Made by a program: the position numbers and the translations under genes. From a virus, in IMG/VR virus record IMGVR_UViG_3300045988_161139: a stretch of DNA of 38,151 nt. One strand, 5' to 3'. Positions within the stretch are counted from its first letter, which is position 1. Every line of letters begins with the position of its first letter. Positions 1-38,151 of the stretch are shown here, piece by piece. The notes beneath the pieces are model-generated. The model worked only from the letters and a program-made list of their open reading frames with translations, ran no database searches and was not told the origin of the DNA.

Positions 1-52
1 ACTCCTCGTAGTCCCTCCGCAACTCCTCGTAGTCCCTCCGCAACTCCTCGTA
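1..52. repeat. 21-bp tandem repeat (CGCAACTCCTCGTAGTCCCTC)n, about 2.5 copies, identical to the repeat at the window end
   Basis: Direct reading: actcctcgtagtccctccgcaactcctcgtagtccctccgcaactcctcgtagtc. The prefix of the window matches the suffix for 5, 26 or 47 nt. Confidence 0.9.
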
Positions 53-712
53 GTCTCGGCACAGATACTCGCTGTTGGGCCGATCGCCGTTGAAGAGGTT
101 GCGAAGACGTTCATAATTCTCTCGGGTCGGCAAATCCCATTGTGAGCCGCGCGTGAACCAATGTCCGGCCATGTGGGTATGCAGGGCATCGTTGACACGC
201 TTCGGTGTGAAGCCTGCCCGTTCCATTTCCGAGATCATATAATCTACCAGAGGCTTCATGCACCGTGTCCGGCACATCCCCTGTTCGTATTCGAATACAC
301 GCAGCATTTTCCGAGCCTCACCTTCCCGAATCTCAGGCCTCGACTCATAAAGTATGAATCGTTCTGCATTAGGAATGAATTTACGCGATATTGCTGCGTT
401 TTGTATTTTCCCCCAACCGTTCGACTTATTCCATGTGCAGCTATTTAAAAACAGAAACATAGTGTCAAGGATCACCTGCGTATATGCGATTCGATTATCG
501 GAGCCCCACCAGATCAGCGTACCGTTGTCTTTCAATAAACGCCGGCACTCTTCACCCCAGCGGCGTACATTGTTCAGGTAATCGTCGAACGTCGGCCATA
601 CGAAATCGAAATCGCCTTTGTACTGGAAATAGGGCGGGTCGGCGATAATCAAGTCGGCACAATGGTCGGGAAGGCAATTTTCCTCAAACCGACAGTTGAT
701 AATTTCATTCAT
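1..712 (-). CDS. DNA N6-adenine/N4-cytosine methyltransferase, N-terminal part (gene wraps across the window junction and continues at 38151..37782)
   Basis: Minus-strand translation from the ATG at 712: MNEIINCRFEENCLPDHCADLIIADPPYFQYKGDFDFVWP..., with the DPPY catalytic motif. It runs to position 1 without a stop and ends ...EYLCRDYEELRRDYEELRRDYEE, in frame with the RRDYEEL repeat that opens ORF 37782..38147. Confidence 0.8.
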   Translation of the reverse strand, partial: MNEIINCRFEENCLPDHCADLIIADPPYFQYKGDFDFVWPTFDDYLNNVRRWGEECRRLLKDNGTLIWWGSDNRIAYTQVILDTMFLFLNSCTWNKSNGWGKIQNAAISRKFIPNAERFILYESRPEIREGEARKMLRVFEYEQGMCRTRCMKPLVDYMISEMERAGFTPKRVNDALHTHMAGHWFTRGSQWDLPTRENYERLRNLFNGDRPNSEYLCRDYEELRRDYEELRRDYEE

Positions 713-727
713 AAAAAACAATTTTTG

Positions 728-798
728 CCGCGCCGGCAGGATTCGAACCTGCGATTTCACCTCCAAAGGGTGACGTGTTGCCCCTACACCACGGCGCA
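728..798 (-). tRNA. tRNA-Gln (anticodon TTG)
   Basis: Minus strand: TGCGCCG-TG-GTGT-AGGGGCA-ACAC-G-TCACC-CTTTGGA-GGTGA-AATC-GCAGG-TTCGAAT-CCTGC-CGGCGCG-G. The cloverleaf has a 7-bp acceptor stem (U1-G72 wobble), 4-bp D stem, 5-bp anticodon stem with loop CUUUGGA (anticodon UUG) and a canonical GGTTCGAATCC T-arm. No CCA is encoded. The 3' end lies 15 nt upstream of the methyltransferase ATG. Confidence 0.8.
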
Positions 799-1029
799 TT
801 GGATTCATTTGTCCCGGTGGTCCTTGCCGCTCGTGTCGTCGCAGCTTCGGAGCCTATGCCGGTTTGTTGCGCTTCGGCTATTCGCCGTCGCGGGGCTGTC
901 TCTTCGAGTCTTGCCCACGACCCGCCGATTTGGGTATTATCGGCCTACCCGATACTCTTTCTGCCCTTGCGGGCTGGGGTGATTTTGCCAGAGCACCAAA
1001 CCCCTCACCTCTGCGGGTGGCTATCGTTG

Positions 1030-1149
1030 TGGTGTAGGCAGGATTCGAACCTGCACGACTGCTTTCCGAGGAGCGTCCTCCGCAACTTGCGTTGCCCGAC
1101 CACTATCAGCCCATCTTTTTGTGTGCGTCTACCATTCCGCCACTACACC
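1030..1149 (-). ncRNA. Aberrant 120-nt tRNA-like element: perfect acceptor stem, tRNA-Leu/Tyr-like D-arm and canonical T-arm, but no recognisable anticodon arm
   Basis: Minus strand: GGTGTAG-TG-GCG-GAATGGTAGA-CGC-A...(about 65 nt containing hairpins GCAAC-GCAA-GTTGC and GAGGA-CGC-TCCTC)...GCAGG-TTCGAAT-CCTGC-CTACACC-A. The 7/7 acceptor pairing, GG-containing D-loop and T-arm are tRNA hallmarks. It is too long for a standard tRNA and no 5-bp stem with a 7-nt loop was found in the middle. Confidence 0.5.
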
Positions 1150-29599: not shown

Positions 29600-30330
29600 T
29601 CAGCGGGCCAACCGTTTTTGCTCATTTGTCGGCTCGACGTTATTATCGAAATCCCTGTATGGCTGGGCGAACGGGAGTACTCCCAATTTGCGCAAAGCAT
29701 TGATTCGCTCCAATGCGTCATCGACATCTTGAATCAGGCAGTAGACAAAAATCCGATAAGGCTTAACACCTCGACGTCCCAATTCCTTCACACACTTGGC
29801 TACCGGTTCCAGCTGTGACATCCGGTCACAGGCGAATCGTACCTGATTCATCCATTTCACGCGGGACAACAAGTCGAGGATGAAGGCGTCGTCGCAAGCC
29901 TGACGTGCATCCAGACCTTGATTGAAATCTACGGAGATACCCATACGGACGATCTCCTCGATCTGTTCCAACCCGAAGTCCGACGCCAGCACATTGTTGT
30001 CGAGCAGCACGGCGCGCCGTTTGTCGCCGATGAATTCACGAAGCGGCGATGCCGGACGGATCGAGCCCTCCTTATGCGGAACGATGCACCACGGGCAGCG
30101 GTTCACGCATCCCCGCGTCAGAAAGCCATAGGCTTCGTCCACTCCGTACAGCGAATAATCCGGACAGCAATGTTCGATCTCGTCGGGCAGCGTCGTCGTG
30201 TAGTCTTTATAGCCTGTGCCGGCACGTACGACCTCGCAAGGGTAATAATCCGGACAGTCGGGCGGAAAGCCCATCATCTGGGCCACATATCGGGGATTCA
30301 GTCGGGAACCCTTCCCAGTTCGAGACGGAT
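29600..30330 (-). CDS. CX3CX2C (radical-SAM-type) cysteine-motif domain, read through without a stop from the 3' end of the broken C5-methyltransferase
   Basis: ...YGFLTRGCVNRCPWCIVPHKEG... shows C-x3-C-x2-C as in radical SAM / QueE / NrdG-like proteins. No canonical start codon lies between the methyltransferase motif X (GFPPD) and the cysteine motif. No clear GGE motif is visible. Confidence 0.45.
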
Positions 30331-31083
30331 GCGAAATCATGACGTCGTGGACGACTCCGCTCTTCCGCGTGGCTTGACTGGGTGGAAGACTGGAATTTAT
30401 AGCATCGTTGACCGTCGGCGTTGACAACAGCCCCATCCGCGTTGCAAGCGCGAGCGTCGGCCGAGCAGTCGCACCATCCGACAGGCTCCTGTTCACACGC
30501 CCGCTCCCGCAATCCGACGCGACCGGTGTCGGCAGTAGAGCCGGCGGCAATGGCTCCGAACCGCTCTTGCCATGAACTTTCAGCCCTTGCGTCACCACGG
30601 TGGGCAACAAACCATGTTCTGTATCGCAGGTGGGGAGCACCGACGCCAGCAGCTGGTATAAGGTACGCTTGCACCTCGTATCCTGCCGCCTCCAAATCAG
30701 CGCACACCTGCTCGAAAACCATTCCCTGCGACCAATTAACGATTCCGAGAACGTTCTCGCCCACGACCCAGCGCGGTCGAACAGTCCGAACAACTCCGAG
30801 CATTGCGGGCCAGAGGTAGCGGTCGTCGGCCGTACCCTTGCGTTTGCCCGCGAGGCTGAACGGCTGGCACGGGAAACCGCCGGTGAGCACGTCGATGCAG
30901 TCGCGCCAAACGGTAAAGTCTGTTGTTCGTATGTCTTCATATTTGTTCCGATTCGGGAAAATGATACTTCAATACGCGCCGGCAGAACGGGTCGATCTCG
31001 CAGTTGAAGACGTTCGTCCAGCCGGCCCACGCGGCCGCTAAGTCGAAGCCGCCGATGCCGCTGAATAGAGAACCGTGCGTCAT
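30207..31083 (-). pseudogene. DNA (cytosine-5)-methyltransferase split over three reading frames (two frameshifts)
   Basis: Frame A from the ATG at 31083: MTHGSLFSGIGGFDLAAAWAGW...KYHFPESEQI* (motif I). Frame B from 30937: YEDIRTTDF...LTGGFPCQPFS (motif IV)...VVGENVLGI (motif VI)...PHLRYRTWFVAHR (motif VIII). Frame C from about 30560: LLPTPVASD...RLNPRYVAQMMGFPPD (motifs IX/X). The first frameshift is a 1-nt difference in CAAATAT (plus ttt 30942..30944); deleting one A restores ...ESEQYEDIRTT. Confidence 0.7.
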
Positions 31084-32021
31084 TAGTACTCCACCGCTGC
31101 CCTGCGATCGATGAAGAAATGAATACCCGGTGCGCATTCGCTCCACCTGTTATCGTCGAAATCCGGAACTTCCACAGTAGCACCGACAGTGTAGACGAAG
31201 TCTTTGTCATGGTCGGAACGAACGGTATCCTCAGTTGCCTTGGTGCCGTCCATGTTCTGAATCTCCATGACGTATGCTTTATCGCAACGGCATTTGTGTC
31301 CCGTTGCCGAACTGCGCCGTGCATCTTCCGGAATTCGTAATTTTACGATATGCCCAGAGGCTTTTTTCCAACCGATGAAACTACCCTCAGTCGGACATGA
31401 TAGATAACATCCCTTGGCATCGCGTAGGTTGGCACCGCGCAGGTCGGCGCCGTACAGGTTGGCACCGCGCAGGTCGGCACCGCGCAGGTCGGCGCCGTAC
31501 AGGTTGGCACCGCACAGGTCGGCACAGCGCAGGTCGGCATCGCGCAGGTTGGCACCGCGCAGGTCGGCATCGCTCAGGTTGGCATCGCGCAGGTTGGCAT
31601 CGCGCAGGTTGGCATCGTACAGGTCGGCACCGCGCAGGTTGGCATCGCGCAGGTTGGCACCGCACAGGTCGGCGCCGTACAGGTTGGCACCGCACAGGTC
31701 GGCACAGCGCAGGTCGGCATCGCGCAGGTTGGCACCGCTCAGGTTGGCACTGCGCAGGTTGGCATCGCACAGGTTGGCACCGCACAGGTTGGCACCGCGC
31801 AGGTCGGCACCGCGCAGGTTGGCACCGCGCAGGTTGGCACCGCACAGGTCGGCATCGCACAGGTTGGCATCGCGCAGGTCGGCATCGCGCAGGTTGGCAC
31901 CGCGCCTAATAGCGTCCAAAACCGTTTCGGTGATTGTGTTTCCCTCTTTCGTGTATTCAAATACGACCGAGCCAGTCCAACGGTTGCGGATTTCGATTTT
32001 AATCTGTTTCGTTGATTCCAT
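31083..32021 (-). CDS. Pentapeptide-repeat protein (about 40 A(D/N)LxG-type repeats) with a distinct C-terminal domain
   Basis: ...GANLRDADLRDANLCDADLCGANLRGANLRGADL... throughout residues 40-200. The C-terminal 110 aa is non-repetitive (CYLSCPTEGSFIGW...ECAPGIHFF...). Its stop overlaps the Dcm ATG as TAATG. Confidence 0.8.
   Translation of the reverse strand: MESTKQIKIEIRNRWTGSVVFEYTKEGNTITETVLDAIRRGANLRDADLRDANLCDADLCGANLRGANLRGADLRGANLCGANLCDANLRSANLSGANLRDADLRCADLCGANLYGADLCGANLRDANLRGADLYDANLRDANLRDANLSDADLRGANLRDADLRCADLCGANLYGADLRGADLRGANLYGADLRGANLRDAKGCYLSCPTEGSFIGWKKASGHIVKLRIPEDARRSSATGHKCRCDKAYVMEIQNMDGTKATEDTVRSDHDKDFVYTVGATVEVPDFDDNRWSECAPGIHFFIDRRAAVEY
31397..31910. repeat. 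Near-perfect 15-bp tandem array (gcaggt(c/t)ggca(c/t)cgc) underlying the pentapeptide repeats
   Basis: Read directly. Dozens of units differ only at 2-3 positions. This generates spurious long ORFs in all frames on both strands. Confidence 0.9.
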
Positions 32022-37781: not shown

Positions 37782-38151
37782 TCATAGCAACATCTGTGTG
37801 CCTAAATACTTTTTTACTCGTTTATTACTCGTTTCGGCATATTTCGGATCGATCTCATACCCCACGAATCGGCGTCCCAGTTTGGCAGCCATTGCACACT
37901 CCGTTCCGCTTCCTGCGAAGGGTACCACCACGAGTGCACCGGGACGTGTCGTGACCTGAATCAGATAACTGGTGATCGCCTCGCCTTTGACTGTGTCGTG
38001 CCCGTAGTGTTTCGATGCGCCGGAATCTTGCGGAAACTGCAATACGTCGGTCGACCGTTCGGGAAGATTGAACGGCCTCCGCAACTCCTCGTAGTCCCTC
38101 CGCAACTCCTCGTAGTCCCTCCGCAACTCCTCGTAGTCCCTCCGCAACTCC
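37782..38151 (-). CDS. DNA N6/N4 methyltransferase, C-terminal part (SAM-binding FxGxG half)
   Basis: The ORF begins (L/M)RRDYEELRRDYEELRRDYEELRRP..., followed by VVPFAGSGTECAMAAKLGRRFVGYEIDPKYAE, which is motif I (FxGSGT) of beta-class N6_N4 methyltransferases. Motif IV (DPPY) is in the 1..712 part, the order expected for the ParB-methyltransferase/beta class. Confidence 0.8.
   Translation of the reverse strand, partial: ELRRDYEELRRDYEELRRDYEELRRPFNLPERSTDVLQFPQDSGASKHYGHDTVKGEAITSYLIQVTTRPGALVVVPFAGSGTECAMAAKLGRRFVGYEIDPKYAETSNKRVKKYLGTQMLL
38078..38151. repeat. 21-bp tandem repeat, about 3.5 copies, in frame within the methyltransferase (encodes RRDYEEL heptads)
   Basis: ccgcaactcctcgtagtccct repeated to the end of the window. 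Same unit as positions 1..52. Confidence 0.9.

Follow-up and report, generated by a model that had tools for sequence, protein, structure and literature searches.

The stretch of viral DNA analysed here (IMG/VR virus record IMGVR_UViG_3300045988_161139; 38,151 nucleotides in all, hereafter the window) is a siphovirus-type phage genome of ~38 kb with genes for terminase, portal, major head protein and tape-measure protein. At 1030-1149 it encodes a 120-nt RNA gene that joins the acceptor stem, D-arm and T-arm of a tRNA-Leu to 70 nt of other sequence standing in place of the anticodon and variable arms. This element, a canonical tRNA-Gln(UUG) at 728-798 and the spacer between them all lie on the minus strand, a point absent from the initial annotation of this DNA. 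Because elements and spacer are conserved across 68 related loci, both RNA elements are real and not chance matches. Moreover, the same tRNA shell (the chassis) is, judged by sequence pattern, carried by hundreds of phage or prophage loci, in which it encloses non-homologous centres (the cargos). The element, being without an anticodon stem-loop, is unable to read a codon. The explanation favoured here, held at about even probability, is that it is a functional non-decoding RNA in which the anticodon and variable arms of a tRNA-Leu chassis have been replaced by an exchangeable structured cargo. Neither Rfam 15 nor the searched literature (full-text searches, including one with the D-arm sequence as a string) describes such a family, and a large survey of structured viral RNAs refers to tRNA-like candidates only in general terms (PMC10690425). 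Phage RNAs with a tRNA-Leu shell and exchangeable cores would, on this basis, be an undescribed family among the tRNA-like non-coding RNAs.

Anatomy of the element and its two alleles

A search of the whole window against Rfam returned two matches to the tRNA family RF00005, at 728-798 and 1030-1149. The first (60.4 bits, E=8e-11) coincides with the single tRNA that ARAGORN calls in the window at default settings, a tRNA-Gln(UUG) at 727-798, and bears out the canonical fold ascribed to this gene in the initial annotation. The second (40.9 bits, where 29 is the gathering score; E=1.9e-5 over the whole window) aligns with the model from end to end (positions 1-71), and 63 nt stand for the 15 model positions of the anticodon arm. 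ARAGORN at default settings did not call the element. No known RNA family other than tRNA was matched, either in the window at the Rfam gathering thresholds or in positions 600-1700 at E<=10. Likewise, neither ARAGORN at default settings nor Rfam finds a tmRNA in the window, and a spurious 'permuted tmRNA' appears only at a lowered threshold.

Read on the minus strand, so that element position p corresponds to window coordinate 1150-p, the layout is GGUGUAG-UG-GCG-GAAUGGUAGA-CGC-[70 nt]-GCAGG-UUCGAAU-CCUGC-CUACACC-A. The 5' acceptor strand GGUGUAG (p1-7; 1143-1149) forms seven of seven Watson-Crick pairs with CUACACC at 1031-1037 and is followed by U8 and G9. The D-arm GCGGAAUGGUAGACGC (p10-25; 1125-1140) is of the tRNA-Leu type, with a 3-bp stem, a 10-nt loop and the loop sequence GGAAU(U)GGUAGA that includes the GG, and bona fide tRNA-Leu genes of phages contain this 16-mer as well. 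The cargo (p26-95; 1055-1124) ends in U95, which is the equivalent of U48, and is followed by the T-arm GCAGG-UUCGAAU-CCUGC (p96-112; 1038-1054), identified both by Rfam and by direct reading. The sequence of the 3' half of the element is GCAGGTTCGAATCCTGCCTACACCA; it closes with the discriminator A73 at 1030, after which comes CAA, so that CCA is not encoded. The perfect 7-bp acceptor stem, Leu-type D-arm and consensus T-arm reported in the initial annotation are therefore all present in the direct reading and in the RF00005 match. The set of nucleotides by which the Escherichia coli leucyl-tRNA synthetase (LeuRS) recognises its tRNA is present as well (A73, A15, GG and U95). Rfam and ARAGORN, the latter in default and intron modes, find in the element no canonical anticodon arm (5-bp stem, 7-nt loop and U33), and no leucine anticodon (NAG or YAA) sits in a canonical loop. 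The element and the tRNA-Gln share an identical 18-nt T-arm stretch, GCAGGTTCGAATCCTGCC, at 1037-1054 and 735-752, respectively, which could reflect gene conversion or common origin.

In agreement with the small hairpins noted earlier in place of the anticodon and variable arms, p26-95 folds into two or three of them. The only robust hairpin in this version of the cargo (allele A) is GCAAC-GCAA-GUUGC (Pc; p55-68, 1082-1095), which is capped by a GNRA tetraloop and has a pair probability of 0.87-0.88. A second hairpin, GGAG-GACG-CUCC (Pd), occupies p69-80 (1070-1081). A possible closing helix, GGCUG/CAGYC (Pa; p39-43 with p89-93, spanning 1057-1111), is uncertain: it is predicted by the minimum free energy (MFE) fold of the cargo alone, in which Pa and a UCGG/UCGG pairing (p51-54 with p81-84) would make a three-way junction, and for the variant in the window its pair probability reaches only 0.17. 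It is thus uncertain whether the remainder of allele A forms three tandem hairpins or a three-way junction. Only three substitutions occur in allele A, and all of them either fall in loops or exchange G-U for G-C. The common G73U (element numbering) lies in the GACG loop of Pd, which becomes UACG, and would disrupt an alternative GAGGA/UCCUC hairpin. The U92C substitution switches a G-U to a G-C pair in the possible helix Pa, and the change of GCAA to GUAA in Pc preserves the GNRA tetraloop. A hammerhead ribozyme was considered for the cargo on account of a CUGAUAG...GAAA string and was rejected, given that the essential GA of the core box CUGANGA is missing and that Rfam gives no match.

A pattern scan with the element's own 5' half recovered 19 viral contigs, and further scans extended this to 68 loci of the window's phage clade. 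Human-gut metagenomes are the source of many of these loci, and the flanks are 92-98% identical to those of the window. The acceptor stem, D-arm and T-arm are intact in all 68 loci, and the only chassis substitution among them, C69U, yields a G4-U69 pair. Two cargos are found in this one chassis and one set of flanks, namely allele A (a 120-nt element, identical or nearly so in 46 loci including the window) and allele B (a 103-nt element, in the other 22 loci). The two share one sequence as far as ...GACGCAC and once more from the final nucleotides ahead of the T-stem onward, and are unrelated in between, such that the swap of the cassette has its breakpoints at the D-stem and the T-stem.

The wider family and selection on the chassis

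Members beyond this clade were sought by scanning viral contigs for the D-arm followed, after a gap of 55-85 nt, by the T-loop; in ordinary tRNA-Leu this gap is about 36 nt. At least 119 viral loci carry the pattern, with more from metagenomes and prophages, and all of the matches are tRNA shells with a non-homologous centre, most of which share the acceptor stem AGUCAGG/CCUGACU. Members gained in further scans, which covered viral contigs, metagenomes and bacterial genomes, have about 60 different acceptor stems between them. Total lengths range from ~70 to >150 nt, and in a scan of the collected loci that left the gap unrestricted the cargos reach 134 nt, compared with ~33 nt for the arms that they replace. 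Grouped by cargo, the 156 unique elements make up 115 unrelated clusters. Within clusters, compensatory changes are seen (CAUCC/GGGUG to UAUCC/GGAUA, and AUUCAG/CUGAAU to AUUGAG/CUCAAU), as are pairings of the pseudoknot type, indicating that at least some cargos are constrained folds and are not drifting.

In tRNA islands the same shell is repeated with different centres: one contig (L002) carries seven copies and one variant within 5 kb, and two others (L025 and L036) carry six and five copies, respectively. These island copies, 87-132 nt long, are scored as tRNAs by Rfam. At gathering threshold, the search of 18 family-rich loci returned only tRNAs and one GOLLD RNA, and no ribozyme or riboswitch within a cargo. 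The GOLLD (RF02032, 262 bits) lies at L041:1293-1710 in a tRNA island and is directly followed by a tRNA-Leu(UAA), with a family member on the AGUCAGG chassis ~250 nt beyond; the same search that detects it there finds neither GOLLD nor ROOL in the window. ARAGORN mislabels short family members with a range of wrong isotypes and with 'anticodons' of 2 or 4 nt. Some tRNA-sized island genes with normal arms have 'anticodon' loops of 6 nt, to which ARAGORN assigns 2-nt anticodons (L015:5854-5924, L040:5124-5195, L044:6622-6692 and L117:1250-1322); these may represent another class of tRNA-like genes that do not decode.

The family also occurs in genomes of Chryseobacterium, Epilithonimonas, Dysgonomonas, Bacteroides, Mucilaginibacter, Chitinophaga, Paenibacillus, Dyella and Desulfospira, apparently in prophages, since the neighbouring genes are phage genes. 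Solitary prophage copies immediately precede genes of the same orientation in 17 of 19 loci, and these genes are diverse. The neighbours of solitary copies are heterogeneous and include genes for a transposase, a helicase-methylase, a tail fibre, a terminase, Sak4 and SbcC. In contrast to these metagenomic and prophage occurrences, BLAST searches of GenBank phages with the window region and with a typical member returned no record with both halves of the chassis, and the family seems to be absent from cultured phages at the sensitivity of BLAST.

Covariation was evaluated on 61 distinct chassis that were aligned with the cargo removed. All seven acceptor pairs have changed on both sides, acceptor cells are paired in 99.1% of cases compared with 37-46% when the partner strand is slid, and none of 500 shuffles reached the observed covariation score. 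Among positions that lie outside of the search pattern, U8 is present in all 61 chassis, U48 (the nucleotide before the T-stem) in 60 and A73 in 51. The flanks of family members are like those of the true tRNA genes that share their loci, with a shared A-C-A-A tail in which C74 is invariant. The shell is thus a real RNA under selection at the RNA level.

When the gap was set to 20-44 nt as a control, the scan recovered the element's 16-nt D-arm in genuine phage tRNA-Leu genes with anticodons CAA, UAA, GAG and UAG; the AGUCAGG shell was never found with a canonical leucine arm in that scan. The E. coli LeuRS needs A73, A15-U48 and G18G19/A20a, and tRNA-Leu that lacks the anticodon and long variable arms is still charged, with the anticodon arm being needed only for editing (PMC9976931). 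That the family retains the nucleotides required by LeuRS and has exchanged arms with which the enzyme can dispense suggests charging with leucine, and the element is possibly chargeable by analogy with these rules.

Flanking sequences and genome context

The spacer between the two RNA genes (799-1029; 231 nt) was described initially as GC-rich and hairpin-dense, which holds to a modest degree: its GC content is 0.59-0.60, compared with 0.3-0.5 further along, and its MFE z-score relative to shuffled sequence is -2.0. Rfam (600-1700, E<=10) gives no match to it, and its sequence hardly varies in the clade, too little for an analysis of covariation. Probably, it is part of a precursor transcript. 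In two loci (L028 and L173) the spacer is 364 nt long instead of 231 nt and its middle is replaced by unrelated sequence, so that the spacer, too, is mosaic.

Upstream of the element, a leader (1150-1327) contains a hairpin at 1259-1323 on the minus strand whose 12-bp stem, GCCCCGAAGCCG...CGGCUUCGGGGC, encloses a loop of ~40 nt and which starts 5 nt past the stop codon of an open reading frame (ORF) at 1328-1603 on the same strand. Without a U-tract, this hairpin is not a standard terminator. The leader also has a biallelic mosaic patch at ~1205-1240 on the minus strand, with the versions CCUCCAAUGCGCAUAGGCAAUCAGUGU... and CCUUUAAUGUGCUGUAUCUUUUCAUAUUUAUUAUUGU..., which may represent promoter variants. 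This patch, 60-100 nt upstream of the element, is found in all four combinations with alleles A and B (19, 26, 12 and 8 loci), indicating that recombination separates the two sites.

Downstream, the 3' end of the tRNA-Gln is separated from the ATG (712-710) of an N6_N4 DNA methyltransferase gene by the 15 nt that had been reported. The window holds the N-terminal part of this gene at 1-712 on the minus strand and its continuation at 37785-38147, also on the minus strand, at its other end. The adjacency to the tRNA-Gln on which the initial annotation had rested a shared transcript is therefore accurate for the window itself; among relatives, the methyltransferase follows the tRNA-Gln in only 5 of the 47 related loci with a readable neighbour, making it an incidental neighbour instead of a conserved partner. 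In most related loci another ORF (ATGAAAAAAGA...) takes its place, and the junction at 713-727 is a further mosaic breakpoint. Co-transcription of the element with the tRNA-Gln and the methyltransferase is plausible given the shared strand and the absence of a convincing terminator.

A common 21-nt tandem repeat that encodes EELRRDY repeats is present at both ends of the window (1-55 and 38076-38151). Together with the division of the methyltransferase gene across the two ends, this indicates that the window is a circularly permuted or terminally redundant phage genome. The host is probably a Bacteroidota gut bacterium, as suggested by the lack of Shine-Dalgarno sequences in the genes of the window, by the human-gut origin of related contigs and by the occurrence of wider-family members in Bacteroidota prophages. 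Elsewhere in the window, an ORF at 31083-32021 on the minus strand contains a 15-nt tandem array (31414-31905; 32.8 copies) that encodes pentapeptide-repeat-like A(D/N)LRG units; the many offset BLAST hits indicate that its copy number varies between related phages. A 574-amino-acid ORF at 29603-31324 on the minus strand combines a DNA-methyltransferase-like region with a radical-SAM domain, according to PHROG, and is an unusual fusion. A helix-turn-helix role is not claimed for the ORF at 1974-2276, for which Pfam gave no match.

Possible functions and relation to known RNAs

If the element is a non-decoding RNA on a tRNA chassis, it would be transcribed on the minus strand together with the tRNA-Gln, after which host RNase P and the enzyme that processes tRNA 3' ends would excise it and CCA would be added. 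Such tRNA-like excision is suggested by the acceptor/T-arm stack, by the elbow formed by the D- and T-loops and by an A73-C74-A-A tail like that of the true tRNA genes of these phages. The chassis keeps A73, A15-U48, G18G19 and the D-loop context, and might then be charged with leucine. The cargo, a compact folded domain that differs between phages, would serve as a module of specificity; its exchange by recombination in the conserved arms is evident from the two alleles. Speculatively, the product could act as a stable decoy or aptamer-like RNA against a factor of the host or of a rival phage, in a neighbourhood of counter-defence genes. The frequent presence nearby of orphan DNA methylases and recombination genes, along with the behaviour of the cargo as a diversified and exchangeable cassette, gives weak support to that role. 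A broader version of this reading, which we put forward tentatively and consider less probable than not, is that the tRNA-Leu shell is a universal chassis of these phages, self-processing, stable and possibly leucine-charged. It would display diversified folded modules as decoys or aptamers against defence or rival factors, or direct leucine or tRNA enzymes to targets, with the modules shuffled via the arms.

Several observations weigh against a functional, structured cargo. The expression, processing and charging invoked for the element are deduced from its sequence. The thermodynamic signal is weak: the mean z-score over 137 cargos relative to shuffled sequence is -0.78, allele A scores -0.5 to -0.9 and contains just the one robust hairpin, and allele B scores +0.5. 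No motif is common to all cargos, and k-mer enrichment among them is modest (ACCC, AGGTGG and GATAG). A guide or antisense role found no support when cargos were compared with the collected phage loci on both strands, in that identity and complementarity did not exceed those of shuffled cargos. Similarly, neither clustering of the ORFs of 143 loci nor PHROG annotation of the neighbours of solitary copies revealed a conserved partner protein. With respect to the chassis, the family was gathered with exact D-arm and T-loop patterns, so that those arms are conserved by design of the search; rows of the covariation alignment were filtered beforehand for at least six of seven acceptor pairs, a filter that 65 of 77 acceptor combinations passed. 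Members may also descend from tRNA-Leu more than once, and the LeuRS identity rules are those of E. coli, while the host here is probably a member of the Bacteroidota.

Among the alternatives, it is conceivable, if unlikely, that only the chassis matters, as a processing signal ('tRNA punctuation') at which RNase P and RNase Z cut a polycistronic transcript, free the tRNA-Gln and define or stabilise the downstream mRNA around a centre that is mere filler. RNase P and RNase Z recognise the acceptor/T-arm and elbow, so that the conserved parts of the family are those that these enzymes read and the variable part is the one that they ignore, and the lack of a universal cargo motif and the co-oriented position of solitary prophage copies upstream of diverse genes (17 of 19 loci) fit this idea. 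Filler should, however, shrink in compact phage genomes, yet cargos extend to 134 nt in place of arms of ~33 nt; and their conservation and compensatory changes inside clusters, the persistence of unrelated alleles at 46:22 in one clade, the 7-8 copies with different centres in islands already rich in true tRNAs and the retention of A73 and U48 would all be left unexplained. In another alternative, the RNA would function by being charged, as a leucyl-tRNA mimic that donates leucine to a non-ribosomal transferase, acts as a sink for LeuRS or EF-Tu or serves as a sensor, with the cargo modulating or targeting it. The chassis holds the full published identity set of the E. coli LeuRS and has lost only arms that are dispensable for charging, given that the anticodon arm is needed for editing and not for aminoacylation (PMC9976931). 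Even so, we judge this quite improbable: charging is predicted from E. coli rules that may not be those of the host LeuRS, A73 is missing in 10 of 61 chassis, clustering of neighbourhood ORFs and PHROG annotation found no associated transferase or synthetase gene, and a pure sink has no need of more than 100 cargo types.

The initial annotation had offered three readings of the element, of which only that of a tRNA-mimic RNA survives. A degenerate tRNA, that is, a decaying tRNA-Leu pseudogene with a junk middle, would agree with the missing anticodon arm, the lack of a default ARAGORN call and a centre that in allele B is no more stable than shuffled sequence. It is nevertheless very improbable in light of arms that are perfect in 68 of 68 loci save for one substitution that gives a G-U pair, the strong acceptor covariation that places the shell under RNA-level selection, and the recurrence of the same architecture in hundreds of phages with more than 100 different centres. 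Introns occur in bacterial and phage tRNA genes, and in intron mode ARAGORN can force the element into a tRNA-Cys(GCA) with a 26-nt intron at 33/34, as would be required of a true decoding tRNA that needs splicing or has an unusual anticodon loop. The forced model is implausible: it has A33 and not U33, its anticodon stem is mismatched, its intron site is non-canonical and a long stretch is left unpaired. It also destroys the most probable hairpin (0.88), would be recoded by the GCAA to GUAA variant (anticodon GCA to GUA) and is inapplicable to allele B and to more than 100 other cargos that lack an equivalent arm. Moreover, the insert of 63-70 nt is far below the size of a group I intron (>200 nt), searches at gathering threshold and at E<=10 link it to no family of introns or ribozymes, and we regard a decoding tRNA as extremely improbable. 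A comparably slight probability attaches to a feature that acts at the level of DNA, either an attP core derived from a host tRNA-Leu, as had also been proposed, or a recombination or homing hot-spot that has inherited RNA features without using them. Phage integration at tRNA genes is common and the conserved arms clearly serve as recombination junctions; but the element is found unsplit, with both phage flanks, inside contigs of 212 kb and 242 kb, none of 185,579 species-representative genomes contains an exact match to its 5' half, and its 5' strand covaries with the 3' strand although the 3' part of a tRNA would suffice for an attP.

The reading of the element as a non-decoding RNA with an exchangeable cargo can be set against several known systems. 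Like a canonical (class II) tRNA-Leu, it has a 7-bp acceptor stem, U8, the identical 16-nt D-arm, A15/U48, a T-arm, A73 and similar gene flanks; unlike it, it has neither an anticodon stem-loop nor a leucine anticodon, and ~33 nt are replaced in the family by 45 to more than 100 nt of unrelated sequence. The closest parallel in design is the engineered tRNA scaffold of Ponchon and Dardel (2007), in which the acceptor, D- and T-arms are reportedly kept and the anticodon arm exchanged for an arbitrary structured RNA, with correct processing and high stability in bacteria. That scaffold is man-made, whereas the chassis described here is natural, of the leucine type and found in hundreds of phages with more than 100 cargo families.

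RNAC and RNAD of phage T4 are encoded in its tRNA region and have tRNA-like ends and processing; neither is known to have a modular or hypervariable core. As described, they resemble the element in being unexplained small phage RNAs, seen by Northern blot and with functions that are still unknown (PMC9697503). GOLLD and ROOL are enigmatic structured RNAs of phages and prophages that often lie beside tRNA genes (PMC12286853); they differ from the element in their size of 400-800 nt, their conserved folds and their lack of a tRNA shell.

In tmRNA and YrlA, a tRNA-like acceptor/T-arm domain without an anticodon arm engages tRNA enzymes, and both are, like the element, tRNA mimics without an anticodon. 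The element has no tag ORF and no G3-U70, in contrast to tmRNA, which combines a tRNA-Ala-like domain with a reading frame for the tag peptide and with pseudoknots, and it matches neither tmRNA nor YrlA in Rfam. The ends of YrlA pair in a Ro-binding stem and its tRNA-like module lies within the RNA, whereas the ends of the element form the acceptor stem. The tRNA-like RNAs of murine gammaherpesvirus 68, transcribed by Pol III, use the tRNA as a processing handle for small RNAs whose hairpins are appended at the 3' side and not inserted; they are likewise virus-encoded tRNA-like sequences, albeit of a eukaryotic virus.

The tRNA islands of phages are usually explained by codon supply or by the replacement of tRNAs cut by host nucleases. 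The family described here indicates that many of the 'odd tRNAs' of phages belong instead to an abundant class of RNA that keeps the features for processing, and probably those for charging, and has traded the decoding arm for a variable folded module. Miscalls of short members by ARAGORN would contaminate censuses of phage tRNAs and inferences of codon reassignment. If these phages do maintain a library of modules on one chassis, nature would have arrived at the design of the engineered tRNA scaffold, and the library would parallel, in RNA, the cassettes that encode anti-defence proteins. Should the modules bind defence or host factors, they would represent a new layer of RNA-based conflict between phage and host and would offer, on a scaffold already proven for expression, a ready natural collection of stable RNAs that resemble aptamers.

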